Shown here: positions 5,560 to 58,949 of the stretch, piece by piece
How the letters are laid out: each line of letters opens with the position of its first letter
How positions within the stretch are numbered: position 1 is the stretch's first letter
Assembly: GCA_937961455.1 (NCBI GenBank)
Contig: CALGNN010000087.1
Coordinates: 1 to 64,000, forward strand
From: an uncultured Saprospiraceae bacterium
GTDB taxonomy: Bacteria; Bacteroidota; Bacteroidia; Chitinophagales; Saprospiraceae
DNA: 64,000 nucleotides
Reading direction: 5' to 3'
Position numbers and translations under genes: made by a program
Notes under the pieces: model-generated
Told to the model about the DNA's origin: nothing
What the model saw: only the letters and a program-made list of their open reading frames with translations
The model's database searches: none

Positions 5560-5570
5560 ACGAGTTGTTA

Positions 5571-7886: not shown

Positions 7887-7926
7887 TTCTCTCTTTTAAA
7901 AGAATTATATTAAACTAACTGTTGCA

Positions 7927-8856
7927 TTGCTACATTTTACAGCATTTGTAAAAATTAAAAAAACACGCATGAGTCCTATTAAAAAAGAAGACATCAATCA
8001 AGAAGTTTTTGATCTATACGATGACTATTGTCACAATAAAATTGACAGGCGAAATTTTATTGAAAAGTTGTCAGTCTATGCAGTTGGAGGGTTGACTGTG
8101 GCGAGCCTGTTGCAATGTGTTTCTCCGGACTATAAAAATAACATTCAGGTTAAAGTTGATGACCCTCGATTGGATATAGAAACTATAGCATTCACTTCTG
8201 CCAAAGGAGGTGGATCCATAAAAGGACAATTATCAAAACCAAAAAACCTCAACAATCAATTGCCAGGGATAATTGTGGTTCATGAAAATAGAGGACTGAA
8301 TCCGCACATTGCAGATGTAGGAAGAAGGGCTGGGCTTGCAGGATTTATTTCATTGGCCCCAGATGCCTTGACTCCACTGGGAGGCTATCCAGGCACAGAT
8401 GATGAAGGGAGAGCTCTTCAAAAACAAAGGGATAAAAATGAAATGCTTGAAGACTTTATTGCTGCATTTGAATATTTGAAAACCCATCCTAATTGTAATG
8501 GTAAAATTGGCGTTGTAGGATTTTGTTTTGGTGGCTGGATTTCTAATATGATGGCTGTGAGAGTTCCGGAATTGTTAGCCTCCGTTCCGTTCTATGGTGG
8601 GCAAGCAGACTCCGAAGATGTCCCAAAAATAAAAGCTCCCTTATTACTACATTTTGCCTCATTGGATGAACGTGTCAACAAAGGTTGGCCTGAATATGAG
8701 CAGGCTTTAAAGGCGAATGAAAAGGAATACATTGCTCATATGTACCCTGATGTAAATCATGGCTTTCACAATGATTCTACCCCACGATATGATGAAGCTG
8801 CAGCAAAACTTGCATGGAAACGCAGCATCGATTTTTTTAAAGAAAAATTAGTCTAG
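7927..8856 (+). CDS. Dienelactone hydrolase family protein (Tat-signal-bearing carboxymethylenebutenolidase-like)
   Basis: RRNFIEKLSVYAVGG twin-arginine-like signal. DLH-family alpha/beta hydrolase pattern (IIVVHENRGLNPHI, GVVGFCFGG, DVNHGFHND). The probable true start is MSPIKK at 7969. Confidence 0.7.
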   Translation: MLHFTAFVKIKKTRMSPIKKEDINQEVFDLYDDYCHNKIDRRNFIEKLSVYAVGGLTVASLLQCVSPDYKNNIQVKVDDPRLDIETIAFTSAKGGGSIKGQLSKPKNLNNQLPGIIVVHENRGLNPHIADVGRRAGLAGFISLAPDALTPLGGYPGTDDEGRALQKQRDKNEMLEDFIAAFEYLKTHPNCNGKIGVVGFCFGGWISNMMAVRVPELLASVPFYGGQADSEDVPKIKAPLLLHFASLDERVNKGWPEYEQALKANEKEYIAHMYPDVNHGFHNDSTPRYDEAAAKLAWKRSIDFFKEKLV

Positions 8857-11345: not shown

Positions 11346-11363
11346 ATTTGATGAATTAGATCA

Positions 11364-12320
11364 TCAAAATACAGCTTTTGCGATTCTTTGAAAGCTTTTT
11401 GCATCTCCCATCGTGTAATAATGCAGACAAGGCACTCCATACTCTTTTAATTCTTTCGATTGAGCGGTGCACCATTCTATTCCTATTTCTTTAATCATTT
11501 TAGGATCTGATGCTTTTTGGACTTCGCTAACTAAATCGTCAGGCATATTAATGTAAAACATTCTAGGAATGCTCTTTAATTGATATCCTTTAGTTAAAGG
11601 TTTCAATCCTGGAACTATGGGAACGTTGATTCCAATTTTTCTACAAGCATCTACAAATGCAAAAAATTTACTGTTGTCAAAAAACATTTGAGTTACAATA
11701 TAATCTGCCCCTGCATCAACCTTATCTTTGAGATATTTTAAATCTGTTTCCAAATTTGGGCTTTCAAAATGTTTTTCAGGATAGCCTGCGACACCCACAC
11801 AGAATTCTGTTTTTGATCCATTTTCAATATTGGTATCAAGATAGATTCCTTCATTCATTTTTTTAATCTGTGTAACCAGATCAACTGCGTATTTGTGTCC
11901 ACCTTCAGTTGGAGAAAAATGTTTTTCAAATTCCATGGCATCTCCTCTTAAAGCAAGCACGTTGTTGATATTGAGGAAATTTAAATCTATTAAGGCATTT
12001 TCAGTTTCTGCAACCTTAAAACCTCCACAGATCAAATGAGGAACTGCATCCACACCATATTTATGCATAAGTGCGGCACAGATACCAACCGTTCCAGGTC
12101 TTTTTCTGATGGCAGTCTTTTCATAGTATCCACTAGCATGCTGCTGGTAGATATACTCTTCTCTGTGATAAGTTACATCAACGAATGGAGGTTTAAACTC
12201 CATCAATGGATCTAAAGTTTTAAAAATCCCTGACATACTCCCTCCTTTTAGAGGAGGTAATACCTCAAAAGAAATTAGGGTTTTGCCATCTGCCTTTTCG
12301 AAATGCTCTGTTACTTTCAT
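11364..12320 (-). CDS. metF: Methylenetetrahydrofolate reductase
   Basis: 318 aa. MKVTEHFEKADGKTLISFEVLPPLKGG and VDVTYHREE are classic MetF N-terminal motifs. Confidence 0.85.
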   Translation of the reverse strand: MKVTEHFEKADGKTLISFEVLPPLKGGSMSGIFKTLDPLMEFKPPFVDVTYHREEYIYQQHASGYYEKTAIRKRPGTVGICAALMHKYGVDAVPHLICGGFKVAETENALIDLNFLNINNVLALRGDAMEFEKHFSPTEGGHKYAVDLVTQIKKMNEGIYLDTNIENGSKTEFCVGVAGYPEKHFESPNLETDLKYLKDKVDAGADYIVTQMFFDNSKFFAFVDACRKIGINVPIVPGLKPLTKGYQLKSIPRMFYINMPDDLVSEVQKASDPKMIKEIGIEWCTAQSKELKEYGVPCLHYYTMGDAKSFQRIAKAVF

Positions 12321-32344: not shown

Positions 32345-35300
32345 ATGAAAAAGACTTTTCTATTAATAGCAATGTTTGTGTTAGCAAACAGCTACAATGT
32401 ATTTGCTCAGTTTGCGGATAAAACTGAGAAAGCCATAGAATTCGTAAAACTCCAAGCTCCTGAATATGATTTGGGTGTGGAGGATGTTTCTAATATTCTT
32501 GTAACAGATGCTTACGAGACGAAAAGAAATAATCGGTCCATGCTTCATGTCTATTTACAACAAGCCTATAATGGAGTCCCCATTGAATCGGGAAGAATAA
32601 ATATGGTAATAATGGATTCTGGTAAAAAAAGGATTCTTGCCAACAGTTTTGAAAAAGACTACCAATCAAAAATCGCCCTATCAAGTAATGATATTGGATT
32701 CGCCAAAGCACTTGATGTGTATACAAAAGATCAAGGCATTCAAGGAATCCAAATGGCTGATAGAAAACAAAGAACTGGATATTCACTAATAATTAAAAAT
32801 GATGAGCAACTGCTTCAAGATATTTATGCTATTAAAAGCTATATCAAAAATGATGCGGGTGAATTCATTCTTGTTTATAGAATTTCTGCGCTTAAGAAGA
32901 AAAACGCTGATGCTTGGGAATTGACTATCGATGCAAGTAGTGGAAACATTATAAATAGAAAGAGTAATACTTTGCACTGTAATTATCAAACAGATCATAG
33001 TTTATCTCAAGCATGTGTTGAAGATCATTCACATGCAATTCCTTCTATGCTAGCAGGAGAAAGCTATAAAGCTTTAGTATTTCCAATTAGTAATCCTTTA
33101 ATGGGTGCAATGGAAGTAGTAACAGAACCTGCTGATCCTATTTCTTCTCCTTTCGGCTGGCATGATGACGACTTAGATGGAGTAGATGATTATACCGTTA
33201 CAAGAGGTAATAATATTAACGCTGGAGCTGATAAGAATGGAGATGATATCATAGACAATGGTGGACAACCAGATGGTGGAACAGAATTGCAATTTGATTT
33301 TCCAGTAGATTTCAGTTTAAACCCAGAGAATTATCTAGAAGCCTCAACTGTAAATTTATTTTATGCTTCTAATTATTTTCATGATTTCATGTATGCATAT
33401 GGTTGGGATGAGCCAGGAGGAAATTATCAACAAACACACCATACAAATACCGGTGGAGTTGCGGGTGACTTAGTTTTGACTTTATCGCACCAAGGTATCG
33501 ATATTGGTTCTTTAAATAATGCCAACTTTTCTCCATCTGTGGATGGCGTTAGAGGTGTTATGAGAATGTTTTTATGGGGTTCTACTCCTTCAGATGTTGT
33601 ATCGATCACATCACCTGCAGGAATTGCTGGAACTTATGATGGCGGTACAGCTACTTATGGAGCTGCAGTAACTGACATACCAGTAGTTGGGGAATTAGAT
33701 ATCGTGAGTGATGAATCAGAATTTCCTTCTCAAGGGTGTAATCCTTTAGTGAATGATTTAACAGGAAAAATTGCCCTTGTAGATCGAGGAGGATGTTTCT
33801 TTGCTCAAAAGTCTGCTCATGCAGAGGATGCTGGAGCGATTGGTGTTATCATTTGTAATTTTGAAAATGCTTACCTAGATCCTGCACCAGATACTGATGG
33901 TATATGGGCTGCTCAAGTAACCATTCCAACTGTAATGTTGCCAAAAGAAGATTGTGATAAATTTAGAGTTGCATTGAGTTCCGGACCTGTTACTGCTTCA
34001 ATAGGATTACCTAATGCGGATGATACGGAGCAACTAGATGGATCATTAGATAATGGTGTGGTAATTCATGAATATACACATGGTCTTAGTAATAGACTTG
34101 TTGGAGGACCAAGTACCACTTGTCTTGGAAGTGCAGAGCAAATGGGAGAAGGATGGAGTGATTTTTATGCACTTGCTACTTCAGTAAGAGAAGGAGATAC
34201 AGGACCTATGAAAAAAGGAATTGGCGTTTACGTATCAAAGCAAAATTTAGATGGACCTGGAATTAGAGGCTTCCCTTATTCAACTGATATGGAAGTCAAT
34301 CCATGGACTTACAATGATATTAGTGGAGAAGGTGTACATGCCGTTGGAGCAGTATGGTGTCAAATGTTGTGGGAGATGTATTGGGCATTGGTTGAAAAAT
34401 ATGGATTTGATAGTGACTTAGTATATGGAACTGGAGGAAATAATATTGCAGTTGATTTAGTAACAACTGGAATGAAGTTTACGAGTTGCAATCCTAGTTT
34501 TGAAGATGGTAGAGATGCCATTTTATTTGTGGATGAAGAAATGTATGGTGGAGAGAATGAAGAATTGATCTGGGCTGCTTTTGCCAAAAGAGGTTTAGGT
34601 TGGAGCTCTGACTCTGGAGATGCTAACAATACTTCAGATGGTACAGAAGGATTTGATTTACCTCCATATATCGTTAAAGAAATCGTTGTTACAAAATCTG
34701 TGACTGAAGAGATTGTCGCAGGACAAGAAATTCAAGTTGATATTTCAGTTACCAACTGGAAAGATGATCCCATTACCAATGTGATCATCTCAGATGACTT
34801 TGTCGATGGATTAGGATTTACTGAAGAATTATCTGGACCTGGAAATGCAGATGTAAGCGCAAACTCTGTTAGCTGGACCATACCATCTATGGAGAGTTTA
34901 GAGACGATAAATATCAGTTATACATTGAATACTGATGAGTCTACTTATTCTACAAGAAATATCTTCGATAATTTTGAAGATGGTGAGTCTGATTGGGAAG
35001 ATGCATGGGAATTGATTGACTTAGCAGGTCTTTCACCTTGGTCCTATACTGATGAAAGAGCCTTTAGTGGTTCCAACAGTGCTGGAATCCAAAACTTAGC
35101 AACCGAAGAAGATCAGGTCATGCAATCCATAGACTATTTTACTGTCCCAGGAGACAATCCTTATCTTAAATTCCAACACTTTTATAGCACTGAACCAGGA
35201 GTTGATGGTGGTATCGTGCAAGTGCAAAGAGAAGGGTCAATCGTATGGGAGTATTTGGATCAAAAATTCATTAGAAACGGCTATCCGGGCATTGTACAAT

Positions 35301-35863
35301 ATGGAACATTTGTTATTCCATTTTTATATGCTTTTAATGGAGATTCTGGTGGATGGATTCCGTCATATGCTGATTTATCTGAATACAAAGGAGAAAAAGT
35401 AAAAGTCAGATTCAGATTTGCATCAGATGAAAATACTGCTGGTATTGGATGGTGGGTCGATGATTTTGAAATCCTAGACTTGTTTACTTACAATACAGAT
35501 GTTTGTGTAAATACTGCAGAAGGAGATACTAAGTGCGCCAACGGTGGAATCGCCGGAACAATCGTGCTTAATCCAAATCTTACGGACATAACAGATGTTG
35601 AAAATTTAGCCTTTGATATGAATCTATATCCGAATCCAGGTGATAATTATCTACAAGTAACTATTGCTTCTGATAAATCATTAGACGGAAACATTGAATT
35701 ATTTGATTCAAATGGAAGATTATTAATGGCCAAAAATAGAGAGCAAATTCAAAAAGGAAATACTTTCTTTGGTTTCAACACAGCAGCTTTAGCAAGTGGG
35801 ATGTACTACATCAAACTTACAAGCGGAAATGATTCTGTTGTTGAAAAATGGGTCAAAAGATAA
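32345..35863 (+). CDS. Secreted M36 (fungalysin-family) metalloprotease with a PA domain and a T9SS type-A C-terminal sorting domain
   Basis: 1172 aa. Signal peptide, FTP/PepSY-like propeptide, HEYTHGLSNRL zinc motif plus EGWSDF (fungalysin signature), PA-like insert (GKIALVDRGGCFF). The C-terminal region (LYPNPGDNYLQV...YYIKLTSGNDSVVEKWVKR) matches a T9SS CTD. Confidence 0.8.
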   Translation: MKKTFLLIAMFVLANSYNVFAQFADKTEKAIEFVKLQAPEYDLGVEDVSNILVTDAYETKRNNRSMLHVYLQQAYNGVPIESGRINMVIMDSGKKRILANSFEKDYQSKIALSSNDIGFAKALDVYTKDQGIQGIQMADRKQRTGYSLIIKNDEQLLQDIYAIKSYIKNDAGEFILVYRISALKKKNADAWELTIDASSGNIINRKSNTLHCNYQTDHSLSQACVEDHSHAIPSMLAGESYKALVFPISNPLMGAMEVVTEPADPISSPFGWHDDDLDGVDDYTVTRGNNINAGADKNGDDIIDNGGQPDGGTELQFDFPVDFSLNPENYLEASTVNLFYASNYFHDFMYAYGWDEPGGNYQQTHHTNTGGVAGDLVLTLSHQGIDIGSLNNANFSPSVDGVRGVMRMFLWGSTPSDVVSITSPAGIAGTYDGGTATYGAAVTDIPVVGELDIVSDESEFPSQGCNPLVNDLTGKIALVDRGGCFFAQKSAHAEDAGAIGVIICNFENAYLDPAPDTDGIWAAQVTIPTVMLPKEDCDKFRVALSSGPVTASIGLPNADDTEQLDGSLDNGVVIHEYTHGLSNRLVGGPSTTCLGSAEQMGEGWSDFYALATSVREGDTGPMKKGIGVYVSKQNLDGPGIRGFPYSTDMEVNPWTYNDISGEGVHAVGAVWCQMLWEMYWALVEKYGFDSDLVYGTGGNNIAVDLVTTGMKFTSCNPSFEDGRDAILFVDEEMYGGENEELIWAAFAKRGLGWSSDSGDANNTSDGTEGFDLPPYIVKEIVVTKSVTEEIVAGQEIQVDISVTNWKDDPITNVIISDDFVDGLGFTEELSGPGNADVSANSVSWTIPSMESLETINISYTLNTDESTYSTRNIFDNFEDGESDWEDAWELIDLAGLSPWSYTDERAFSGSNSAGIQNLATEEDQVMQSIDYFTVPGDNPYLKFQHFYSTEPGVDGGIVQVQREGSIVWEYLDQKFIRNGYPGIVQYGTFVIPFLYAFNGDSGGWIPSYADLSEYKGEKVKVRFRFASDENTAGIGWWVDDFEILDLFTYNTDVCVNTAEGDTKCANGGIAGTIVLNPNLTDITDVENLAFDMNLYPNPGDNYLQVTIASDKSLDGNIELFDSNGRLLMAKNREQIQKGNTFFGFNTAALASGMYYIKLTSGNDSVVEKWVKR

Positions 35864-35880
35864 TAAGCTATAATAGCATT

Positions 35881-35924
35881 AAAAAAGCCTTGTTAATTAA
35901 GAAATTAGCAAGGCTTTTTTTTTA
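35881..35924. terminator. Bidirectional intrinsic terminator between convergent genes
   Basis: Stem AAGCCTTG / CAAGGCTT with a 16-nt loop, flanked by an A-run (35881-86) and a T-run (35917-24), so it works for both the + gene ending at 35863 and the - gene ending at 35943. Confidence 0.65.
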
Positions 35925-35942
35925 TGATTTATTTGAGAGATC

Positions 35943-37385
35943 TTATTCTTCTTCAGTCATTGCCTCTACTGCATCTTCAATTTTATCACCCACAACTTCA
36001 CCAATAGCCTTAACGGTATCGACTACATCTTTAAGTGATTCTGATAAGACGGCTCCAGCTGCGCCTAAAAGTGTTTCAGTAGTAGGCGCTTCTACTTTTT
36101 CTTGTTTTTGTTCTGCATCAGTTGTTTCATCCACTGGAGCTTCAGGATCTTTTGGCTCTATGGGTGCTTCTTCCTTTTTGGCTGGCTGCTTCTTTTTTGA
36201 TTTTAACTCGGAGGCTGCTTGTTCTAGTTTATCTTTATCAACATTCCTAGCTTCAGCATCTTCTTTAATTTGTGAAGCAATCTTTTCTTTGATCTCTCCC
36301 TCCTTTTCTACAATCTTAGCTTTTTCAGCTTTCTTTGCTTCTTTCTTTTTCTCTTGCTGCATTTTTGACTCAAGTTCTCCTTGTGTCTTTTTCATATCAG
36401 CTAATTTAATTTCTTTAGATTTTATACGCTCTTCCACCATCTTCAATTTTGCTTGGCGGATTTGCGTTTCTAACTGTCCATCTGATCGTTCTATTCTGGT
36501 ATCCTGAAATGCTTTCTCTTTACGATCTCGTTGGATAGATTTTTCCATTTTGCCGATGGCATTCATTAAGCCATCATAGCGCTTTTGTAAACGTGAACTT
36601 GCGTTAGAAGATTGATTACTTCCAGGACCGTATTTCTTTTCCTTGACAGTTTTGAAAGCTTTGTCAATTCTTTTCCAAATCTTTGATCTATCATCTTTTG
36701 TAAATGCAGTATCTCTAAATTGATTTTGCAGGTTTTTCAACTCTTCAAAAATTGGTCCTAGACCCAAACCCTCTGACACTCTCTTTTCAATATCATCTAG
36801 TTTTTCACTAAACTGTCCTACAAACTCAGAAGAAGACTTTTTGAAATCTTGATCCATCTTTCGACGGAATTGTTTCATTGCTCCAAAAAGATCATTCGTG
36901 CGACTTCTTAAGTCATCTGCATGATCTCTAAAAAGATTTTTTTCATGCACTTGCTCTTGTACTTTCGACCAAAATGTTTTTAGTGATTCCCAGGTTTCTC
37001 CATGAAATTCAGATAGACCCTCAATCTTCTCTTTAAATTCATCTAGTTCATTATGATACAATTGGCTTAGCTTGGTAGAAAGCACAATGAAATGCCATTC
37101 TGTTTGAGCTCTTTGGATTAAATCGCCTTGATCAACTTTAATATCAATGGGTAAAATGCTTTCTGCTACACTGAGTTCTCTTTCAACATGTTTATGTTCT
37201 TCAGGAAAAGAAACTTCTTTATCCTTGCGCCATTCATTCATTAAAAGATTGTAAAAAACTTCTGTTGCATCTTTTTCTTTAAAGGTGTAGATGTCAACTT
37301 TATTTTCTTTTTCGCGGAGTGCAAGTGCTACTAAAATCTTTTGATCTTGTGCATCTTTGCCCCAAAGGACTAGTTTTTTTTTCAT
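35943..37385 (-). CDS. Hypothetical Lys/Glu-rich coiled-coil protein (possibly DUF349-like)
   Basis: 480 aa with no signal peptide. The N-terminal ~250 aa have repeated W/F-containing helical motifs (TWESLKTFWSKVQEQ, NLFRDHADDLRSRTNDLFGAMKQFRRKM). The C-terminal half is highly charged K/E coiled-coil. Confidence 0.45.
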   Translation of the reverse strand: MKKKLVLWGKDAQDQKILVALALREKENKVDIYTFKEKDATEVFYNLLMNEWRKDKEVSFPEEHKHVERELSVAESILPIDIKVDQGDLIQRAQTEWHFIVLSTKLSQLYHNELDEFKEKIEGLSEFHGETWESLKTFWSKVQEQVHEKNLFRDHADDLRSRTNDLFGAMKQFRRKMDQDFKKSSSEFVGQFSEKLDDIEKRVSEGLGLGPIFEELKNLQNQFRDTAFTKDDRSKIWKRIDKAFKTVKEKKYGPGSNQSSNASSRLQKRYDGLMNAIGKMEKSIQRDRKEKAFQDTRIERSDGQLETQIRQAKLKMVEERIKSKEIKLADMKKTQGELESKMQQEKKKEAKKAEKAKIVEKEGEIKEKIASQIKEDAEARNVDKDKLEQAASELKSKKKQPAKKEEAPIEPKDPEAPVDETTDAEQKQEKVEAPTTETLLGAAGAVLSESLKDVVDTVKAIGEVVGDKIEDAVEAMTEEE

Positions 37386-37432: not shown

Positions 37433-38431
37433 TTAAAGCATGTCTTCTTTCAATAGATACTCTGCAATCTGAATTGCATTGGTAGCTGCGCCTTTTCTTA
37501 GATTATCTGAAACAATCCACATATTGACGCTATTCTCTTGTGATTCATCCGCTCTGATTCTTCCCACAAAAACTTCATCTTTCCCTTTGGCAAATAATGG
37601 CATGGGATAAAGGTTATTATTCACATCGTCTAATACTTCAACGCCTGAAGTATGATTTAAGATGTCTTTTAACTCAGTTATTATTGGTTTTTTTTCAAAT
37701 TCTACATTTACCGTTTCACTATGACCTCCTACAACAGGTACTCTAACAGCGGTTGCGGTAATGCGTAAACTTTGATCTGAAAGTATTTTCCTCGTTTCAT
37801 GGACCAATTTCATTTCCTCTTTGGTGTAATCATTTTCAAGAAAAACATCACAATGAGGAAGGCAATTCTTAAAGATAGGATGTGGATAAGCCTGATCTTC
37901 TTGCTCAGGAGTAGTACCTGCGACTTCCTTATCAAACTGCCTAACAGCTTGTACTCCTGTACCCGTTATTGACTGGTATGTAGAGATCACCAATCTTTTA
38001 ATCTTATATTTCTCATGCAAAGGAGCCAAGGCCATGACCAATTGAATCGTAGAGCAATTAGGATTTGCAATAATTTTATCTGTCTTTTCTAAAGCACTCG
38101 CATTGATCTCTGGAACCACAAGTTTTTTATCTGGATCCATTCTCCAAGCTGAAGAATTATCGATGACTGTCGTTCCTACTTTGGCAAACTCAGGTGCCCA
38201 TTTTTTTGAGGTATTACCACCTGCCGAAAAAATGGCAATTGCAGGTTTATTTGCAATCGCTGATTCCATGCTTTGCACGACATAATCATTACCCTTACAA
38301 CTAACTGTTTTACCTACAGATTTTGCTGAGGCCACAGGTATTATTTCTGTGAAAGGAAAATTTCTTTCTGCTAAAATCTCCAACATTACGGTTCCTACCA
38401 TTCCGGTAGCTCCTACTACTGCTATCTTCAT
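37433..38431 (-). CDS. asd: Aspartate-semialdehyde dehydrogenase
   Basis: 332 aa. MKIAVVGATGMVG Rossmann N-terminus and catalytic-Cys region (NPNCSTIQL). Confidence 0.9.
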   Translation of the reverse strand: MKIAVVGATGMVGTVMLEILAERNFPFTEIIPVASAKSVGKTVSCKGNDYVVQSMESAIANKPAIAIFSAGGNTSKKWAPEFAKVGTTVIDNSSAWRMDPDKKLVVPEINASALEKTDKIIANPNCSTIQLVMALAPLHEKYKIKRLVISTYQSITGTGVQAVRQFDKEVAGTTPEQEDQAYPHPIFKNCLPHCDVFLENDYTKEEMKLVHETRKILSDQSLRITATAVRVPVVGGHSETVNVEFEKKPIITELKDILNHTSGVEVLDDVNNNLYPMPLFAKGKDEVFVGRIRADESQENSVNMWIVSDNLRKGAATNAIQIAEYLLKEDML

Positions 38432-38495
38432 TAAATTGATATTAATTCAGAGACAAATATATATTTCACATTCGCTTTATTAGTATTTTCACACT

Positions 38496-41099
38496 ATGAA
38501 ATATAAACTACTAAAACTACTTTATTTAACCCTTCTGAGCCAAATATGTTTTGCTCAAGTCTCTGATAATTTTTCAGATGGAGACTTTACAGCAAATCCG
38601 ACTTGGCTTGGAGATACTGATCAATTCATTGTCGAAGATCAGGTACTCAGACTGAATGCCCCTGAAGCGGGCACTTCTCAGCTGGTACTTGCTTCTGAAA
38701 GTTCAGATAGCACGATATGGGATTTTTATTTTCTAATGGATTTTAGTCCCTCTGCTTCTAATCAATTACAAATTTGGTTGAATGCTGATCAAGCTAACTT
38801 AGAACAAGCCAATGGCTATTATTTAGAAATTGGAGAATCTGGAAATACTGACCATTTAAATTTTTACAAAAAGGAAGATGGTCAAACTACAAAACTTTGG
38901 GAAGGGCCAGAAAGCACATTGGGAACAGAACCTGCCCTTGCAAGGATTCGGGTGGAGAGATATCCTAATGGCAGTTGGAATTTTTATACCAATTATACAG
39001 CAAGTGGACCCTTAACATTGGAAGGAACAATTTCAGACTTCAGCTTCCTATCGTCTTGTGCAAGTTTTTTTGGATTCCATTGTTCTTATACTGCTACTAG
39101 AGCTGACAAATTTTATTTTGATGACATTGTCATCCAAAGCTTCCTTACGGATAATGAAGGACCAGAATTATTGAATGTATCAGCGATTGATGAATTCGAA
39201 CTAGAATTAAAATTTTCTGAAATTCTAGATCTAAGTAATATTAATATTTTAGAAGCCATTCGTCTTGAACCTGGATCTATCGCACCTATTAGTGTAGCTG
39301 TTGATGTAGAAGATCAAAAAAATCTGCAAGTCCTTTTCGACAAGCCCTTAAATGGTGTTGAAGATTACAGCATTGCATTTATGGATCTTCAAGACCTTTG
39401 TGGCAATTTAAGCACAGATAATTTTCCATTTAAACTAGAGGGAATAAGCCAAGCGTCCTACGGTGCTATATTAATCAATGAAATATTTTCAGACATCTCC
39501 CCTTCTCTTGGAGTCATTCCAGCGGTAGAATGGATTGAAATTTATAACAACAGCTCCATGAGCTTCCAGCTCAATCAATATCAATTGATAGCTGACCCCA
39601 ATCCTGCGCTGTTTCCTGATTACCTTTTAGAAGCTGGAAACTATGTAATTATCTGTAGTGACGAGGATGTTGCTGCTTTAAGTCCATTTGGCGATGTGAT
39701 AGGTCTTGAAGATTTTCCAAATTTAAAAGATGATGGAGAGCTCATTCAACTCTTCAATAAAAATTTTGGACTCGTTCATGCTTATGAATATTCTAAGAAA
39801 TTATTCCCTTCTAATAAATCAGATGGTGGCTGGTCATTGGAGCGCATCGATACAGAAGAAGCCTGTGTCGAAATAGCTAATTGGGCCGCAAGTGTGGATT
39901 TGAGAGGAGGAACTCCAGGTACAGAAAATTCAGTATCAAGCGACCTTAGCACAGTTCCTAACTTTAAAGTTTTAAATGCATCATACATTTCTGAAAATGA
40001 GATTCAGTTGAATTTTTCAAAAGCACTTGGAGCAAGTTTTCTTGGAGATCTGGATATAGAAATTGACCCTAACTTGTCTATCGACGAAGCGATTCTCGAT
40101 CAAGATGACGCGGCGAAACTGCAAGTCACATTTACAGAAGAGATGGTAGATGGCATCGTCTATGAAACCAGTTTTAATTCTGAAGTTTATGATTGTGCTG
40201 GCAATGCTTTGAGCTTAAGTGATACCATAAAATTTGGTATACCCCAAGAAGTGGCGCCATTTGATATTGTGATCAATGAAATTTTATATCATCCTGCCAC
40301 TGGAGGAGTTGACTTTGTTGAATTGTATAATCGCTCAGAAAAAATCATTGCACTCAATGATTTACAATTGGCAAATCTTGACCCATTCAATCCAAAGATT
40401 GAAAATATTGAAAGTGAAAGATTGCTTTTGCCGAATGATTATTTGTTGATGAGTGAATTTCCTCCAGACATTAAAGAACGATATAATGTAAAAGATGAGG
40501 AGGCAATATTTGTCTTCGACTTACCAAGTTTTCCAACACAATCAGGAAATGTAAGTTTGTTGAAAAACCAATTAGTAGGTACAACTGTCATTGATAGCTT
40601 CAATTATCACGATGACTTGCATTACCAACTTCTTGACAAAACGCAAGGAATTTCGCTGGAAAGGATTAATTTTGACGTGCTTAGCAACGATGCCAATTGG
40701 CATTCAGCCGCTTCTTTGGCCGGTAATGCAACACCAGGATATAAAAATTCGCAGTTCAACAACGACCGTATTGCAACAAATGAGTTTATAAAGTTGAATT
40801 CAAAATCGTTTTCGCCAGATGGAGATGGATTTGAAGATTTTTTACTTATAGAATATGAGCTAGAAAAACCAGGATATACTGGAACGCTTACTATGTATGA
40901 TGCTGAGGGTCGGAAAATCAGAACCATTGTAAACAACGAATTGCTCGGCTTGACGGGCACAATTAAGTGGGATGGCATCACAAATGATGGAAATTCAGCT
41001 AAAATGGGCATTTATATTGTTGTATTTAGTGTCTTTCATGCAGATGGTGACGTCAAAAGAGCAAAGCAAACTTGCTATTTGGCAAAAATATTGGACTAA
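38496..41099 (+). CDS. Lamin-tail-domain (LTD) surface protein with two LTDs and a T9SS type-B (gliding-motility-associated) C-terminal domain
   Basis: Signal peptide. Two LTD signatures (ILINEIFSDISP...VEWIEIYNNS and IVINEILYHPATGGVDFVELYNRS). The C-terminal FSPDGDGFEDFLLIEY...YDAEGRKI...IKWDGITNDG...YIVVF matches a type-B CTD. Confidence 0.7.
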   Translation: MKYKLLKLLYLTLLSQICFAQVSDNFSDGDFTANPTWLGDTDQFIVEDQVLRLNAPEAGTSQLVLASESSDSTIWDFYFLMDFSPSASNQLQIWLNADQANLEQANGYYLEIGESGNTDHLNFYKKEDGQTTKLWEGPESTLGTEPALARIRVERYPNGSWNFYTNYTASGPLTLEGTISDFSFLSSCASFFGFHCSYTATRADKFYFDDIVIQSFLTDNEGPELLNVSAIDEFELELKFSEILDLSNINILEAIRLEPGSIAPISVAVDVEDQKNLQVLFDKPLNGVEDYSIAFMDLQDLCGNLSTDNFPFKLEGISQASYGAILINEIFSDISPSLGVIPAVEWIEIYNNSSMSFQLNQYQLIADPNPALFPDYLLEAGNYVIICSDEDVAALSPFGDVIGLEDFPNLKDDGELIQLFNKNFGLVHAYEYSKKLFPSNKSDGGWSLERIDTEEACVEIANWAASVDLRGGTPGTENSVSSDLSTVPNFKVLNASYISENEIQLNFSKALGASFLGDLDIEIDPNLSIDEAILDQDDAAKLQVTFTEEMVDGIVYETSFNSEVYDCAGNALSLSDTIKFGIPQEVAPFDIVINEILYHPATGGVDFVELYNRSEKIIALNDLQLANLDPFNPKIENIESERLLLPNDYLLMSEFPPDIKERYNVKDEEAIFVFDLPSFPTQSGNVSLLKNQLVGTTVIDSFNYHDDLHYQLLDKTQGISLERINFDVLSNDANWHSAASLAGNATPGYKNSQFNNDRIATNEFIKLNSKSFSPDGDGFEDFLLIEYELEKPGYTGTLTMYDAEGRKIRTIVNNELLGLTGTIKWDGITNDGNSAKMGIYIVVFSVFHADGDVKRAKQTCYLAKILD

Positions 41100-42079
41100 T
41101 TGATTTAGTGGAAAAACTTTTTAAAAATAGAATCATACTTTTTGGATCAGCCGCAATGATTTCGGCCCTCACTTTGATTTGTATTTTTACGCCTGAAGTA
41201 CTATTCTTAAAAAAATGGGCGGATTACACGGTGCAGATCATGCTGAGCTTTTTATTGTTAGGCATTTTTTTCCTTGCAATCAATAATAGGATTCTGATGT
41301 ACATCAGCTTTTTCTCATGCTGTTTGCTTTGTTTATTCCTTAAATCTTCCTCCTATGAGAATATCAGACTTGCATTAGATACACAACAACCTGAGATTTC
41401 TATAGTACATATCAATACTTCTAATTTTAAGGAAGATTTCATGTTGTCCATCAATCAACTGAGTAAAAAGGATGCAGACATCATTTCTTTTCAAGAGGTA
41501 AACCCTTACTGGAATAAAATCTTAAAGGAACAATTAAACAAAACATATCCTCATTTTATAGAGCTTACTAGAATTGATCCCTATGGAATGATTGTTTTTT
41601 CTAAGCATGATATCAATCGCTCTGACACCATATTCCATGAAAACATTCCAACGCTACATTTGACGATAGATATTGAAGGTGAAGAATTGATGGACCTATT
41701 TTGCATTCCTTCGATTCCGCCTGTGAGCAAGAATCACTATGAGAAAATGAAAGCGCATCTAAGCAATACTGCGAGATATATAACAAGGACCTATCAACCT
41801 ACACTTTCGTTTGGAGATCTCAATCTAGTTAGTTGGTCAAACGAAATAAGATCTTTTAGATCTCAAGCTGGGTTGAACGACAGTCGAAGATCCATTTCTT
41901 CTATTTCGGAAGAGAGTAACTTTTCATTTTTTAGAGTCCCTGTTGATCATATTTTCTTTTCTGATGAATTGGAATGCACAAAGTTTGTAGATATTTTTCA
42001 AGCAGACGAAACGCATTTAGGTATCTTTGGTACGTACCAATTTAAGAACAAGGATAAGTATGGTCAAATTCTTGAATAG
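41072..42079 (+). CDS. Membrane-anchored endonuclease/exonuclease/phosphatase (EEP) family protein
   Basis: 335 aa. 3-4 N-terminal TM helices, then EEP motifs (DIISFQEVN, SFGDLNLVSW, VPVDHIFFS). Overlaps the LTD gene by 28 nt. Confidence 0.6.
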   Translation: MLFGKNIGLIDLVEKLFKNRIILFGSAAMISALTLICIFTPEVLFLKKWADYTVQIMLSFLLLGIFFLAINNRILMYISFFSCCLLCLFLKSSSYENIRLALDTQQPEISIVHINTSNFKEDFMLSINQLSKKDADIISFQEVNPYWNKILKEQLNKTYPHFIELTRIDPYGMIVFSKHDINRSDTIFHENIPTLHLTIDIEGEELMDLFCIPSIPPVSKNHYEKMKAHLSNTARYITRTYQPTLSFGDLNLVSWSNEIRSFRSQAGLNDSRRSISSISEESNFSFFRVPVDHIFFSDELECTKFVDIFQADETHLGIFGTYQFKNKDKYGQILE

Positions 42080-42422
42080 TTTTAAATATGCCATAAAAGG
42101 CATCATCTTAAACTTTAAGGAAGAAGCAAATTTTCGATTTCATTGCTTTATGGCATTGCTGGTAATTGCAGCTTCTTTTTATCTTAAATTAGATACTTTG
42201 GAGTTTGCCATAGTTGGGATTTGTATTGGCTTGGTATTAGCCGCAGAAGCCATCAATACTTCTATAGAAAATCTGACAGATTTGGTATCACCAGAAAAAC
42301 ATGAGCTCGCTGCAAAAACTAAAGATTCCGCTGCGGCTGCAGTGTTGATTATTTCCATTGCAGCAGCTATAGTAGGTCTTATCATTTTCTTACCTAAATT
42401 GATTGCACTATTTAATGGTTGA
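42060..42422 (+). CDS. dgkA: Diacylglycerol kinase (DgkA) family protein
   Basis: About 120-aa, 3-TM protein with the DgkA signature (EANFRFH, AINTSIENLTDLVSPE, KDSAAAAVL). The ORF track starts at 42027, but MVKFLNSF at 42060 is more likely, overlapping the EEP gene by 20 nt. Confidence 0.7.
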   Translation: MVKFLNSFKYAIKGIILNFKEEANFRFHCFMALLVIAASFYLKLDTLEFAIVGICIGLVLAAEAINTSIENLTDLVSPEKHELAAKTKDSAAAAVLIISIAAAIVGLIIFLPKLIALFNG

Positions 42423-42864
42423 CGTACAAATCAAGCGATTCTCAGAACTGGACCAAAATGAGCTTTATGATATTCTGGCACTAAGACAGATGGTATTCGT
42501 CGTTGAGCAAAATTGTGTCTATTTAGATGCTGATAATAAAGATCAACAGAGTTGGCATTTAATGCTCAAGGACCAAGAAAAAATTGTGGCTTATGCCCGT
42601 CTAATTCCTAAAGATCTTGTTTATGAAGATCACACTTCTATAGGGAGAATACTTGTTCATCCAGATGCACGCAAACAGGGGCTTGGGAAAAAACTTACCA
42701 TAGAAAGCATTCAATTTTTATTAGACAACGACTTGAGTAGTCCCATTAAAATATCGGCTCAATTGTACCTAAAGGAATTTTATTCTAATCTCGGCTTTGT
42801 TGCACAAGGGGTATCCTATCTCGAAGATGGAATACCACATATTGCGATGACTTATAAAAGATGA
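42403..42864 (+). CDS. GNAT-family N-acetyltransferase (ElaA-like)
   Basis: 153 aa. The ElaA-type N-terminus (LSELDQNELYDILALRQMVFVVEQNCVYLDAD) and acetyl-CoA motif (RKQGLGKKL). TTG start overlapping the dgkA end. Confidence 0.6.
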   Translation: MHYLMVDVQIKRFSELDQNELYDILALRQMVFVVEQNCVYLDADNKDQQSWHLMLKDQEKIVAYARLIPKDLVYEDHTSIGRILVHPDARKQGLGKKLTIESIQFLLDNDLSSPIKISAQLYLKEFYSNLGFVAQGVSYLEDGIPHIAMTYKR

Positions 42865-42865
42865 T

Positions 42866-44296
42866 CTAAGGAAGAATGCTATCCTTAACCGTATCTAATA
42901 TTCTTCGGGTGGCCAGTCGATCTGGAGCTTCAGCATAAACTCTCAAGACGGGTTCTGTTCCAGAAGGTCTAATCATTACCCAGGTACCATCTTCAAAGTG
43001 AAATTTAAAGCCATCAATTTTTTCAACCTTCACCACAGTTAAAGGACCAAAAGCCGTGTAGGAATCATTTGCACATTGCTCTATAATGGATTGCTTTTTC
43101 TCTTCAGTCAATCTAAGGTCATCTCTTTCGAATGCAAAACCTCCAACTTTATCATAGACTTCATCAATAAGCTGTTTAAGACTCTTACCTGTTTTAGCCA
43201 TAAGTTCAAGGATCATAATACCAATCCAAATTCCATCTCTTTCTGGAATATGACCTTTCACAGCTAGACCTCCTGATTCTTCACCCCCGACAAGGATGTC
43301 TTCTTTGATCATGATCTCAGCAATATACTTAAAGCCTATTTTGGTGACTTCAATTTCAAGTCCATATAATTCAGCAAGCTTTTTCATTTTCTCTGTAACA
43401 GAAAATGTAATCACCACCTTTCCATTCAATTTTTTATGCTCGAATTGATAGAATAATAGTAAAAGTAAGATCCTATGGGAATCTACAAAATGGCCATCTT
43501 CATCAAACATTCCAATTCTATCCGCATCGCCATCATTTGCAATACCGATATGCACATCATCACGATCTGCTATATACTTTGATATTTCTATTAAGTTTTT
43601 CTCTATAGGCTCAGGCGCCTGACCCATGAAAGAAGGATTCTTTTCACAATGCAATAAATGCGCATCAGGAAAAAGACGTTTCATTCCATCTTGGCCCGCA
43701 CCATACATGGCATCATAAGCGATACCAATTCCTGAATTTTTAATAGCATCTAAATCAAAATTTTCTTCTACATGATCGATGTATACTTGTTCAAAATCTT
43801 GATATTCTACGACGCCAGATTCCAAAAGATCATTTACTTGAGGTGGCGCTATCATCGCAGTTTCAGGAATCAATTGTTCAATCGCTGCAATATCATTTGG
43901 AACTGTTGGTCCTCCAAATGAAGACTTTAATTTATAGCCATTGTAAGAAGCAGGATTGTGGCTCGCTGTGATGACTACACCCATATCTGATTTTGTCTTT
44001 ACGACACCTAAGGAAACCATTGGTGTAGAAATAATTCTATCACTTAATAATACTTTAATATTATAAGCTCCTATAACTGATGCTGTAGTCTCAGCAAACA
44101 TCTTCCCTCCAAATCTACAGTCGTATCCAATTACTACTTGCTTCATCCCATTAGCAACCATAAATTTTGCAGTTGCTTCAGCGACTCTTTTAACATTGTT
44201 GACGGTATATGATTCAGCTATTATTGCTCTCCATCCGTCTGTTCCAAATTTAATTTTCTTCATTTGCGGCCCATTATGTTTAGACAAAATTAGCAT
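42866..44296 (-). CDS. Phosphomannomutase/phosphoglucomutase (alpha-D-phosphohexomutase family)
   Basis: Active-site TASHNPASYNGYK, Mg site DGDADR, GEESGG sugar-binding loop. The likely start is MKKIKFGTDGWR at 44260. Confidence 0.8.
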   Translation of the reverse strand: MLILSKHNGPQMKKIKFGTDGWRAIIAESYTVNNVKRVAEATAKFMVANGMKQVVIGYDCRFGGKMFAETTASVIGAYNIKVLLSDRIISTPMVSLGVVKTKSDMGVVITASHNPASYNGYKLKSSFGGPTVPNDIAAIEQLIPETAMIAPPQVNDLLESGVVEYQDFEQVYIDHVEENFDLDAIKNSGIGIAYDAMYGAGQDGMKRLFPDAHLLHCEKNPSFMGQAPEPIEKNLIEISKYIADRDDVHIGIANDGDADRIGMFDEDGHFVDSHRILLLLLFYQFEHKKLNGKVVITFSVTEKMKKLAELYGLEIEVTKIGFKYIAEIMIKEDILVGGEESGGLAVKGHIPERDGIWIGIMILELMAKTGKSLKQLIDEVYDKVGGFAFERDDLRLTEEKKQSIIEQCANDSYTAFGPLTVVKVEKIDGFKFHFEDGTWVMIRPSGTEPVLRVYAEAPDRLATRRILDTVKDSILP

Positions 44297-44334: not shown

Positions 44335-44985
44335 ATGTTAGTTGATTCTTACCGGCATAAAGGCTTGCGTAAAAATCTAATCGATCACTTAAAAATTAAA
44401 GGCATAAAGGACGAAAATGTTCTCTTAGCCATGTCAAAGATTCCTCGCCACTTTTTCCTTGATCCGGCTTTTGATGAATGGGCTTATAAGGATCAAGCCT
44501 TTCCAATAAGTGAAAATCAAACCATTTCACAACCCTTGACTGTCGCCATTCAAAGCAGTCTCTTAGAAATAAAAAAAGGAGATAAAGTTTTAGAAATTGG
44601 GACTGGAAGTGGATATCAGGCTTGTGTATTGAGGGAGCTAGGTGCTAAAGTTTATACTATTGAAAGAATAGAAAAATTATTTCATAAGACGAATCAGCTC
44701 TTGCAGTTAATGGGCTATCAAAGCATTCGCACTTACCATAAGGATGGATATCAAGGATTACAATTATTCGCACCCTTTGATAAAATCATCGTTACTGCTG
44801 GAGCAAATCAAATTCCAGAAAAATTAAAAGCTCAGCTTAAAGTAGGTGGATATCTTGTCATCCCAAGTGGAAAGGGAGACATCAAAACCATGATCAGACT
44901 CAAAAAAATATCGGAAACCAACTTCATTACTGAGAATTTTGGTGATTTCCGATTTGTTCCTTTTAAAGAAGGTGTAGTTACTTAG
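44335..44985 (+). CDS. pcm: Protein-L-isoaspartate O-methyltransferase
   Basis: 216 aa. PIMT motifs (QTISQPLTVA, VLEIGTGSGYQACVL). Confidence 0.85.
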   Translation: MLVDSYRHKGLRKNLIDHLKIKGIKDENVLLAMSKIPRHFFLDPAFDEWAYKDQAFPISENQTISQPLTVAIQSSLLEIKKGDKVLEIGTGSGYQACVLRELGAKVYTIERIEKLFHKTNQLLQLMGYQSIRTYHKDGYQGLQLFAPFDKIIVTAGANQIPEKLKAQLKVGGYLVIPSGKGDIKTMIRLKKISETNFITENFGDFRFVPFKEGVVT

Positions 44986-56695: not shown

Positions 56696-56726
56696 ACCTG
56701 TCAGTTCTTGCTGGCAGGTTTTTTTA
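56696..56726 (+). terminator. Intrinsic terminator after the beta-barrel gene
   Basis: Stem ACCTGTCAG / CTGGCAGGT (one G-U pair) with a TTCTTG loop, followed by TTTTTTTATTT. Confidence 0.6.
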
Positions 56727-57734
56727 TTTGCCTTCTGTATAAATATAGGCTCTTAAATCTTCTAGCTGACGTTCCGACATTCTGTCGACCGTATAGTGTG
56801 GCATGTAGCTTCGTTTTCCATATAATGGTTGCGTTCCATATCTGGCTACTTGATACACTGATCTTCTATTGTACTTTGGAAAATTCTTCTTCAAATAATT
56901 TAGGCTCAATTTAGATTCATCTAATTGCAAAAAAGAAAATTTCCCATTTTCATGGCAATGTAGGCAGCTATGATCATAGATCAATTCGCCTCTATATGCA
57001 TTACCAGTGAGATCTAAACTTCTATTTTCTGGAGGATCTACGAAGGTAGCTGGCGAAGCGATACTATACTTTGATTGAATGAGATTTGCCGCTGCTTTTT
57101 TATCATCAATGGATTTTGAATCAAAAGCATTATCCACATTTTGAAGTTCTTGTGCACTTAGGTCAAGATCCTTTATTTTCAGATCGATCGTATTGAGATA
57201 TGCAACTACTGATTCCATCTCCCAACTTTTCAATTTTCTTCCTTGCGCACATTCCGTTGCACAAAGCTGAATTGCTGACCTCAAATCATTTCGAGCATCA
57301 TCTACCAAGTCACCATATTTTTTCACGTAGTCATCATTGTAGTAGTGCGTTCTATTGACCACACCATACAATGTAGTGGCTTGCAAAAATGGAAGATCAT
57401 TTTCCACAGCATAGGCTAAACGGTCTTCTGGATTTGGCGAAGAAAGCACAGGATCTTCCTTAACCAAATTGTGGCAAGCTACACAGGTAAAATGTTTACT
57501 TTGCTTTTTGACCTTTCTTCCACTTAAAGTTTCACCATACTTTACAATCTCCTCTCCTATTTCAACAGAGACTTTATTTTTATCCAATAAGGGAAGATTA
57601 TGAGGATCAACATCAAATTGTTTTAAAACCTCTGAGACTTTTCGTTCTTCTAGATCTCTGTAATTTTCATTATCGAATAAACCAGGTGCGATACTGGTCA
57701 ATAAAACAATGCAAAACATGATCAAATACTTCAT
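56724..57734 (-). CDS. Di-heme c-type cytochrome (secreted)
   Basis: Signal peptide. Two CXXCH motifs (CVACH, CLHCH). Each is followed by a class-I cytochrome-like distal Met/helix segment (ESVVAYL; MPHYT...LSERQLEDLRAYI). Confidence 0.7.
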   Translation of the reverse strand: MKYLIMFCIVLLTSIAPGLFDNENYRDLEERKVSEVLKQFDVDPHNLPLLDKNKVSVEIGEEIVKYGETLSGRKVKKQSKHFTCVACHNLVKEDPVLSSPNPEDRLAYAVENDLPFLQATTLYGVVNRTHYYNDDYVKKYGDLVDDARNDLRSAIQLCATECAQGRKLKSWEMESVVAYLNTIDLKIKDLDLSAQELQNVDNAFDSKSIDDKKAAANLIQSKYSIASPATFVDPPENRSLDLTGNAYRGELIYDHSCLHCHENGKFSFLQLDESKLSLNYLKKNFPKYNRRSVYQVARYGTQPLYGKRSYMPHYTVDRMSERQLEDLRAYIYTEGK

Positions 57735-58600
57735 ATATTAAAAAGTCTTGATATAGTAAATCCCATTCTAAATTGGCCGTCAAACCAATTGCTGGTGGTA
57801 TTAGGAATATAATCCGTTTCTATAATTGCTTGTGAATTGGTAAAATTTAATTGAAAAATATGTCCACCACCTGTTTCAAATTCAAAGCCCAATCCTAATG
57901 AAGGATGGTACCCATTTTCTTCTGTTCGCAATGCAGAAAAAGGATAGTTGAGATCAATGATTAATCCCAACCATTTATTTACATTGATTCTACTTGCAAA
58001 ACCTGCACTTATAATTCCATTTTCATCGTTTTCATTCACCAAGTTTCTATGTGTATAAGATCCATGAATTTGCAAAGAAAAATTGCTAGAAAATCGTTTT
58101 GCCAAAATAATTTGTGAATGGTAAGACATTCTATGAATGGATTCAGGAAAACTATTAAGTAAATCAGTATTGGTAGATTTTGACATAGTCGATCCTGAAG
58201 CTAATAGTAATAAGGTCATATCAATTCCATCATCCGTATTGGCACCTACTAATTGATACTTGGCAAAGCCATTGACTAATTGCTTCAAAGGACCCACTCC
58301 CTTCGTTCTGTTTAATCCAATCATAAATTTATCACTGATGCCATACTCAGCTCCTATCATTACATCTGCTACATTTTCTAGGCCATAAAAAGTTGGCCAG
58401 CCTCCATTTGTGCCTAATAAGTCACCAAAACGATGGGCAATTCTAATATCCAAATTACCAGCTTTAAGTGTTTCACTCGAATGTGTATTAATGACACGGG
58501 TATCCTTAAATGTTTGACCATAGGTTGCACTCACAAAAAATAGGAGTAACATTAAGACACAAATAATTGGATAAAATTTATTTCTATTCTGCATAATCAT
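57731..58600 (-). CDS. DUF5777-like outer-membrane beta-barrel protein
   Basis: 289 aa. Signal peptide and alternating amphipathic beta strands. The stop overlaps the downstream cytochrome start (ATGA), and the start overlaps the upstream small cytochrome gene by 17 nt. Confidence 0.5.
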   Translation of the reverse strand: MIMQNRNKFYPIICVLMLLLFFVSATYGQTFKDTRVINTHSSETLKAGNLDIRIAHRFGDLLGTNGGWPTFYGLENVADVMIGAEYGISDKFMIGLNRTKGVGPLKQLVNGFAKYQLVGANTDDGIDMTLLLLASGSTMSKSTNTDLLNSFPESIHRMSYHSQIILAKRFSSNFSLQIHGSYTHRNLVNENDENGIISAGFASRINVNKWLGLIIDLNYPFSALRTEENGYHPSLGLGFEFETGGGHIFQLNFTNSQAIIETDYIPNTTSNWFDGQFRMGFTISRLFNI

Positions 58601-58949
58601 TTTCTATCCAACATTTAATGATGTTTAATTCTTCTTCGGTTAACATAGTAGGACCTGTAGCATATTCAGGCGGCATATTTTGTTGGGTAACTACTCGATT
58701 CCCAAATTTTGCTTGATTCAACATAGGCTCCATGCTCGTATAGCTGGTAAAATCACCACTAGCAAAACCAGATACGTGACATCCTGTATAGGAACAATTC
58801 GTTTCAATAATGGCTTTTGCTTGATTGGTATAAGTTACTGGAGTATCACATACCAAAGGATCAACCATCACTTCGAGTTTGTCAAAACTACAGGAGGCTA
58901 AGCTTGCTAATAAGACTATATATATGGGTAAAAAATTCTTATAATTCAT
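58584..58949 (-). CDS. Small lipoprotein with a CX4CH (CSYTGCH) heme-like motif and a class-I cytochrome c-like C-terminus
   Basis: 121 aa. Lipobox LLASLASC, CSYTGCH, and NMPPEYATGPTMLTEEELNIIKCWIENDY resembling the Met-ligand loop plus C-terminal helix of small c-type cytochromes. Confidence 0.5.
   Translation of the reverse strand: MNYKNFLPIYIVLLASLASCSFDKLEVMVDPLVCDTPVTYTNQAKAIIETNCSYTGCHVSGFASGDFTSYTSMEPMLNQAKFGNRVVTQQNMPPEYATGPTMLTEEELNIIKCWIENDYAE

Follow-up and report, generated by a model that had tools for sequence, protein, structure and literature searches.

What belongs together in a tightly packed gene string of an uncultured Saprospiraceae bacterium, and what could the linked genes do? 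The string occupies positions 38496-42864 of a 64,000-nucleotide (nt) stretch, hereafter the window (GenBank assembly GCA_937961455.1, contig CALGNN010000087.1, positions 1 to 64,000, forward strand). It encodes a protein with lamin-tail domains (LTD protein), a membrane-anchored protein of the endonuclease/exonuclease/phosphatase (EEP) superfamily, a DgkA-family lipid kinase and a GNAT N-acetyltransferase. Our comparison with relatives indicates a compact, probably co-transcribed and functionally mixed operon, in which EEP-DgkA is the sole evolutionarily coherent unit. We tentatively read the pair, at somewhat less than an even chance, as a periplasm-facing lipid phosphoesterase and a lipid-alcohol kinase that recycle a membrane lipid.

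Gene content and junctions of the string

The four consecutive plus-strand open reading frames (ORFs) were of the types named in an earlier note on this DNA, as both the ORF list and Pfam agreed: LTD 62.5 bits (cut-off 34.3), Exo_endo_phos 50.5 (24.5), DAGK_prokar 118.9 (22.3) and Acetyltransf_10 55.3 (23.6). The features of the string were:

38496..41099, plus strand: LTD protein, putatively secreted, multi-domain, 867 aa (Pfam and AlphaFold model)
41108..42079, plus strand: small YafD-like EEP phosphoesterase with three transmembrane (TM) helices, 323 aa from GTG 41108; alternative starts TTG 41072 and ATG 41156
41132-41344: TM region of the EEP protein, aa 21-91 (335-aa numbering, used here for all EEP residues)
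41393-42046: EEP domain, aa 108-325
42060..42079, plus strand: 20-nt overlap between the end of the EEP gene and the start of DgkA; its TAG stop for EEP lies within DgkA codons Asn6-Ser7 (AAT AGT)
42060..42422, plus strand: DgkA-family integral-membrane lipid kinase, 120 aa (PF01219)
42415..42864, plus strand: ElaA-like GNAT N-acetyltransferase, 149 aa (Acetyltransf_10); 8-nt overlap with DgkA
42866..44296, minus strand: phosphomannomutase/phosphoglucomutase (PMM), convergent, closing the string (ORF list; PGM_PMM domains in the identical locus L095)

Overlaps of 28, 20 and 20 nt had been reported for the three junctions, measured on maximal ORFs, i.e., from the earliest possible start codon. 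With the starts used by gene callers or homologues, the junctions were +8 (or +56), -20 and -8 nt. The 20-nt EEP/DgkA overlap was retained, the DgkA/GNAT overlap was reduced to 8 nt (ATGGTTGA), and the LTD/EEP overlap gave way to a gap. The exact products of DgkA (from ATG 42060) and GNAT (from ATG 42415) are database entries for this sequence. The EEP start TTG 41072 was chosen by no gene caller. In the relative L085 and in P0001, the latter 98% identical, the EEP gene starts at the GTG equivalent to 41108, leaving an 8-nt gap after LTD, and in L095 and L096 at ATG 41156, giving 307 aa and a 56-nt gap. The junction alignment of close relatives did not settle the start codon, as they are 98% identical and thus uninformative. 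We preferred GTG 41108, because it is the shortest start with a complete first membrane helix and because the frame is open that far in nearly all of the 80 relatives described below. With a start at 41108 or 41156, and not at 41072, the LTD/EEP overlap is therefore probably not real; the two genes most likely do not overlap.

Three successive tight junctions are at the tight end for this genome, yet not exceptional. Six of the other same-strand junctions in the window (n = 33) had an overlap or a gap of <=10 nt, the median being 48 nt, and the genes at 56724-58949 likewise have three tight junctions running. Promoter-like and terminator-like matches in the string were no more frequent than in shuffled sequence, and an Rfam search of the window gave no match. 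The Bacteroidota -7 motif TAnnTTTG was not enriched in the window (71 found vs 79 expected). Because of this, TATCTTTG at 42022-42029 (plus strand), which fits the motif and lies within the EEP gene 30 nt upstream of the DgkA ATG, is no evidence for an internal promoter. Co-transcription of all four genes is a plausible and reasonable conclusion from the packing, with no usable intergenic spaces. This part of the earlier operon proposal stood; the single four-gene system did not, given the gene order in relatives.

Conservation of the gene order in relatives

A scan with one genome per species gave 80 loci carrying an EEP relative, from Saprospiraceae or unclassified Bacteroidota metagenome-assembled genomes (MAGs), plus Portibacter marinus. 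These loci and the EEP homologues assign the window to Saprospiraceae (Bacteroidota). Gene order was read by tblastn with the window proteins. The broadly kept order was M36 protease, K/E-rich protein, asd (aspartate-semialdehyde dehydrogenase), LTD, EEP, optionally DgkA and GNAT, then PMM, pcm, lipoprotein and tadA.

EEP-DgkA is the only junction of the string that is conserved across these loci. DgkA lies straight after the EEP gene in 30 of the 80. Counted from the nearest in-frame DgkA ATG, the two genes overlap in 23 of these 30 (by 20 nt in nine, by 23 nt in eight, by 4-32 nt in the rest) and abut in four (0-1 nt); the remaining three have gaps of 6, 59 and 77 nt. With the window (20 nt) and one further locus, L093 (29 nt), the totals were 25/32 overlapping and 4/32 abutting. 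The pair also persists without LTD upstream in L018, L052, L069, L071 and L093, and the upstream genes of L018, L069, L071 and L093 are mutually unrelated. L069, for example, has a CoiA-like gene upstream and a lipocalin-like gene downstream of the pair. L093, found by a look-up starting from DgkA, encodes an EEP family member 39-42% identical to those of L010 and L013, with the invariant S271-R272-R273, W255 and C302. The pair there is surrounded by genes for an amidase/fn3 protein, an alpha/beta-hydrolase and an HtrA-like protein; none of LTD, asd, GNAT or PMM is nearby. The suggestion that EEP and DgkA belong together thus gained comparative support, with 29 of 32 pairs overlapping or abutting and the pair outliving rearrangements that remove LTD, asd, GNAT and PMM.

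The constant partner of the LTD gene is asd, because asd lies divergently upstream of LTD in 53 of the 55 assessable loci among the 80 and also upstream of all seven LTD homologues looked up outside this set. None of these seven had an EEP gene downstream (0/7). They came from Adhaeribacter soli, Aureispira, four Bacteroidia/Bacteroidota MAGs and one 8.9-Mb genome (L081, L082, L084, L087-L090). An EEP gene behind LTD was seen in Saprospiraceae only, directly downstream in 63 of the 74 loci that could be assessed. The projected distance between them varied from 2 to ~430 nt, and inversions parted the two genes in L002, L006, L018, L038 and L043.

DgkA and GNAT are in direct contact only in the lineage of the window (L085, L095, L096). 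Elsewhere, where a locus has both, they are 1.5-3.3 kb apart, with a DUF5723 gene and a 304-aa gene without a family in between. Judged by this distribution, the DgkA/GNAT overlap is the recent product of a lineage-specific deletion, and GNAT is a neighbour by descent. The GNAT protein scored 93.6 bits against the NCBIfam model PRK10314 (ElaA), below the equivalog cut-off of 171, and passed generic GNAT models. The string very likely splits in three, LTD going with asd, EEP with DgkA, and GNAT being incidental. Of the LTD-EEP-dgkA synteny that was to be checked in related genomes, only the EEP/DgkA overlap was found conserved, the LTD/EEP gaps (2-430 nt) and the lineage-bound DgkA/GNAT contact being variable.

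Anchor, fold and active site of the EEP protein

An EEP protein with an N-terminal multi-TM anchor had been predicted, and three membrane helices (residues 20-38, 53-69 and 73-93) were found both in the AlphaFold model (pLDDT 85.6, pTM 0.83) and by hydropathy. In the model a linker of 15 residues leads from them to the EEP domain (~225 residues), folded as a four-layer alpha/beta sandwich as in solved EEP enzymes. The K/R bias (N-terminus net +1.4, loop 2 plus the start of TM3 ~+1.3; opposite side +0.25 and +0.14) mildly favours a topology with the N-terminus inside and the domain outside, in the periplasm. TM3 (residues 74-91, nt 41291-41344, with the end "CLFLK") was the best-conserved segment of the protein, at 0.64 vs 0.49 for the EEP domain. 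Such strong conservation is unexpected in a mere anchor.

The window protein holds the canonical catalytic set N115, E142, D249, N251, D292 and H315. The mapping used alignments with ExoIII, YafD and nocturnin: N115, E142, D249 and N251 correspond to ExoIII N7, E34, D151 and N153, and D292 to the "LDY" motif, H315 being placed by motif order and the final strand. H293 was rejected as the catalytic histidine, since the same alignments put D292-H293 at the "LDY" motif. An apparent H293Y degeneracy was dropped for the same reason, H293 not being a catalytic position. The protein has Pro213 at the central Tyr/His position and Thr314 at the "SDH" Asp.

To our knowledge, no member of this membrane-anchored EEP branch has been characterised. 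An exhaustive profile search gave 582 representatives at E <1e-30 and ~6,600 at E <1e-10; the best 150 matches were all members of the core family. Searched as a single sequence against those of the PDB, the EEP protein gave no match.

The DgkA-family kinase

The kinase covered the full PF01219 profile and, in an alignment to 2kdc, keeps the equivalents of E. coli E28, E69, N72, E76, K94 and D95. It is 30% identical to E. coli DgkA. Identity was 52% both to a Mycoplasmatota homologue and to a Firmicutes homologue encoded in a ybeY-dgkA-cdd-era-recO operon, the arrangement characteristic of B. subtilis dgkA. We know of no Bacteroidota DgkA that has been assayed. A putative B. subtilis DgkA sequence that matched no database sequence exactly gave 39% identity and was set aside as evidence. 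The DgkA family was thus confirmed, and the label "diacylglycerol kinase" given to this gene is insecure, because the protein appears closer to the Firmicutes, undecaprenol-kinase type than to the E. coli enzyme. On sequence grounds it leans to the Gram-positive (B. subtilis) type, and the name may be wrong. B. subtilis DgkA phosphorylates undecaprenol, according to Jerga 2007 as cited in PMC5723303.

Proposed mechanism

In the reading that we tentatively prefer, the EEP protein would sit in the inner membrane by its three N-terminal helices, with the small phosphoesterase domain in the periplasm near the membrane. Cleavage of a membrane-lipid phosphate ester by this domain would yield a lipid alcohol, for which diacylglycerol or ceramide (from a phospholipid) and undecaprenol (from an undecaprenyl-phosphate species) are candidates. 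The alcohol would flip across the membrane, and the DgkA-family kinase would re-phosphorylate it on the cytoplasmic face. EEP and DgkA are proposed to be made together, because DgkA is translated from an overlapping frame. The logic would resemble that of EptA/MCR-3 with DgkA. A more specific version is quite improbable: a so far undescribed carrier-lipid salvage module, in which the EEP protein would cut undecaprenyl-phosphate-linked or dead-end species, freeing undecaprenol on the periplasmic side of the inner membrane, and a Gram-positive-type DgkA acting as undecaprenol kinase would restore undecaprenyl phosphate inside.

Several observations weigh against a recycling pair. Adjacency alone is weak evidence, because the whole neighbourhood is syntenic whatever its function; the functionally unrelated genes asd, PMM, pcm and tadA are equally syntenic in Saprospiraceae. 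On the EEP tree, DgkA adjacency is distributed clade-wise with ~4 state changes and is for that reason mostly inheritance. The EEP gene occurs without an adjacent DgkA in a large clade. Conversely, L087 (Saprospiraceae-like, 8.9 Mb; 6001-11972) has LTD-DgkA-DUF5723-GNAT without an EEP gene, DgkA starting 10 nt behind the LTD stop, and no EEP gene adjoins a Pontibacter DgkA that is 53% identical. The EEP stop is mostly a TAG formed by the Asn-Ser codons of DgkA, and because these codons are conserved, the recurring overlap length is partly a by-product; the EEP frame nevertheless has to remain open and in phase for the overlap. The region-wide synteny and the EEP and DgkA genes that occur without each other would also suit an EEP protein that acts in the periplasm on nucleic acids or nucleotides, as a YafD/ExoIII/TDP2-like phosphoesterase serving in scavenging or DNA processing, with DgkA merely sharing its transcript and the overlap lasting because it is hard to undo. 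The similarity searches point partly the same way. In the PDB, the profile of the EEP family matched an apurinic/apyrimidinic endonuclease best, B. subtilis ExoA (E 3e-4); nocturnin, NApe and TDP2 came next, and the sphingomyelinase SMPD2 had E 0.05. The soluble E. coli YafD was a probable distant homologue of the EEP domain (hhalign 86%, E 4.7e-6, 188 columns, 20% identity). In structure, human neutral sphingomyelinase SMPD2 came first in two methods, and the ranking was nearly flat, with nocturnin (21.6), TDP2 (21.3) and ExoIII (20.6) all <2 Z from the top match and SMPD3 and SMase C at 19.1 and 19.4. Hence the comparison of EEP subgroups, proposed earlier as a check, did not separate lipid from nucleic-acid groups. 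We nevertheless consider such a nuclease-like hitch-hiker rather unlikely. The upstream context changed independently at least four times with the pair remaining intact. The most conserved part of the EEP protein, the membrane segment adjoining its domain, would be needless for an enzyme with a soluble substrate, and the catalytic residues vary more than a housekeeping nuclease would allow.

That variability also counts against the recycling pair itself. Among 81 family members, N115 was kept in 70, D249 in 56, N251 in 61, D292 in 67 and H315 in 53, with H315 replaced by Arg in 16. Only 37/81 members, and only 12/31 of those linked to DgkA, have the full set of six, which is complete in the window protein. 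L093, whose overlap persists among different neighbours, carries Thr249 and Ala315. In the same members P145 and W147 were 100% conserved, and L90 and K91 of TM3, S271, R272, C302 and G317 93-99%. Such a variable catalytic set beside invariant non-catalytic residues may leave room for a partly non-catalytic role. The EEP protein would then be a pseudoenzyme, a periplasmic binding or regulatory partner that joins the DgkA trimer within the membrane and senses or supplies the kinase's lipid substrate, co-production being favoured by the overlapping frames. We regard a largely non-catalytic protein as improbable, however: the metal-binding Glu142 is conserved in 79/81 members, the window protein has all six residues, and the canonical set is commoner in the clade without DgkA (25/50), pointing to real enzymes. 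A four-gene system, and especially LTD plus EEP as a surface DNA-binding/nuclease pair as raised in the earlier note, is very unlikely. It would draw on ExeM, a characterised nuclease that, like Xds, fuses LTD and EEP domains (PMC6085458), and on the frequent position of LTD directly upstream of EEP in Saprospiraceae (63/74). Set against these are the seven outside LTD homologues, which adjoin asd and never an EEP gene, the unconserved spacing and the inversions described above. Moreover, an inner-membrane anchor is predicted for the EEP protein, but a signal peptide and a C-terminal sorting-type domain for the LTD protein. The head of the LTD protein is lectin-like and not an OB fold, and the LTD of ExeM is dispensable for DNA degradation (PMC6085458).

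As first stated, the finding is mostly ordinary, because all genes are of known families and tight packing is normal here. What is new is an uncharacterised membrane-anchored EEP branch joined to a DgkA-type kinase by overlapping frames, the two moving together, with the linkage so far in one family. Our literature search found no paper connecting an EEP protein with dgkA, nor LTD proteins with type IX secretion system (T9SS) function. If the pair recycles a lipid alcohol, an EEP-based route would be added to the few bacterial reactions known to feed DgkA, the TM-EEP branch would gain a testable substrate class, and the origin of undecaprenol or diacylglycerol in Bacteroidota might be revealed. 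If the salvage version were true, it would name the long-missing undecaprenol-generating enzyme, at least in one bacterial lineage. For annotation, the LTD gene is to be placed outside the EEP-DgkA unit, and "diacylglycerol kinase" is possibly a misnomer.

The LTD gene and the surrounding region

The LTD gene and its divergent neighbour asd are separated by a 64-nt spacer, and the tblastn identity of asd across the 80 loci was 57-73%. Their features were:

37433..38431, minus strand: asd (aspartate-semialdehyde dehydrogenase), divergent neighbour of the LTD gene, outside the string
LTD protein aa 1-21: signal peptide
LTD protein aa 22-215: ConA/L-type-lectin-like beta-sandwich
LTD protein aa 225-313: Ig-like domain (Big_5)
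LTD protein aa 319-465: LTD1
LTD protein aa 492-580: Ig-like domain
LTD protein aa 588-738: LTD2 (divergent)
LTD protein aa 739-763: disordered linker
LTD protein aa 765-862: C-terminal beta-sandwich (candidate T9SS sorting domain)
40788..41081, plus strand: the LTD protein's C-terminal domain, candidate T9SS sorting domain of ambiguous type

The divergent asd-LTD pair (37433-41099) is kept across distant Bacteroidota although no functional reason is evident, and it may be the region's more interesting conserved linkage. The LTD family had >2,681 matches, mostly 1,130-1,420 aa long. The AlphaFold model of the LTD protein (pLDDT 74.9) is all-beta, with a 195-residue N-terminal sandwich, Ig, LTD, Ig, LTD, a disordered linker of low model confidence and a C-terminal sandwich. 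Two lamin-tail domains had been described. The Pfam match fell in two stretches, the best at aa 319-433; this first copy is clear, and the second scanned alone was weak (27.8 bits, below 34.3).

The evidence for a T9SS type-B cargo was mixed. CHU_C was borderline: the whole protein scored 25.4 bits (cut-off 27) and the last 117 aa alone 30.0, and the C-terminal domain scanned alone also matched FlgD_ig (28.5 bits, cut-off 27). The type-B model, NCBIfam TIGR04131, failed on this domain with 13.1 bits vs a cut-off of 35. The protein is probably a secreted, lectin-headed surface protein exported by the T9SS.

As the earlier note had stated, the sole PorP/SprF gene of the window (5571-6650, minus strand, 99.8 bits) is ~32 kb away, and none lies beside the LTD gene. 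It is followed by a gene for a PorE-like TPR/PD40/OmpA/DUF1573 protein (together 3232-6650, minus strand), and the two are probably core T9SS machinery and not a cargo-specific SprF. Relatives have a gene for a DUF5723 outer-membrane-barrel-like protein (92.7 bits) two genes downstream of LTD, between DgkA and GNAT, as in L010 (9572-12151), where the 304-aa gene without a Pfam family accompanies it, and in L087 (9990-11510). Its product could be a PorP/SprF-like partner of the LTD protein in these relatives. No DUF5723 gene was found by tblastn in the 64-kb window.

Upstream of asd, a 1172-aa M36 fungalysin-like metalloprotease with PA, DUF11, MAM-like and type-A T9SS sorting domains (32345-35863, plus strand) is syntenic in many relatives. 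A 480-aa K/E-rich protein without a Pfam family (35943-37385, minus strand) is syntenic in 51 of the 80 loci, and a 219-aa Ser-rich ORF (35848-36507, plus strand) is apparently its antisense shadow. At the convergent gene ends downstream of the string, GNAT and PMM are 1 nt apart (42864-42866) and pcm and the lipoprotein gene overlap by 4 nt (44982-44985), with no terminator-like structure predicted.

Comparison with known systems

The closest analogy is with eptA and mcr-3, which are genetically linked to dgkA and encode periplasm-facing lipid head-group enzymes in the context of diacylglycerol recycling (PMC7559476). EptA/MCR-3, and also E. coli OpgB, share with the window EEP protein N-terminal inner-membrane helices, a periplasmic catalytic domain (predicted in our case) and the linkage to dgkA, and DgkA re-phosphorylates the lipid alcohol that they leave behind in the membrane (PMC7559476). 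They differ in having a domain of the alkaline-phosphatase/sulfatase superfamily, five TM helices and a transfer reaction to lipid A or glucans, whereas the window protein has a small EEP fold and three TM helices.

Neutral sphingomyelinases (SMPD2/SMPD3 and bacterial SMase C) are only 15-19% identical to the window protein, and their structural margin over nucleases is 1-2 Z. Compared with them, the window protein has Pro in place of the central His/Tyr and carries its anchor at the N-terminus, not at the C-terminus. E. coli YafD (COG3021) differs in having no membrane helices and in not lying beside dgkA. We know of no substrate for YafD or for the uncharacterised small bacterial EEP proteins of PDB entries 3g6s, 3mpr, 3l1w and 4ruw.

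ExeM and Xds resemble the locus in the co-occurrence of LTD and EEP modules, and ExeM fractionates with the cytoplasmic membrane (PMC6085458). They combine LTD, OB and EEP in one chain, the OB folds being essential for activity, whereas in the window the modules are on two genes, OB folds are absent, the LTD protein has a lectin-like head, and the linkage is seen in one family only. For the kinase, the nearest likeness is to the B. subtilis type, through the Firmicutes homologue (52% identical) in its B. subtilis-like gene arrangement.

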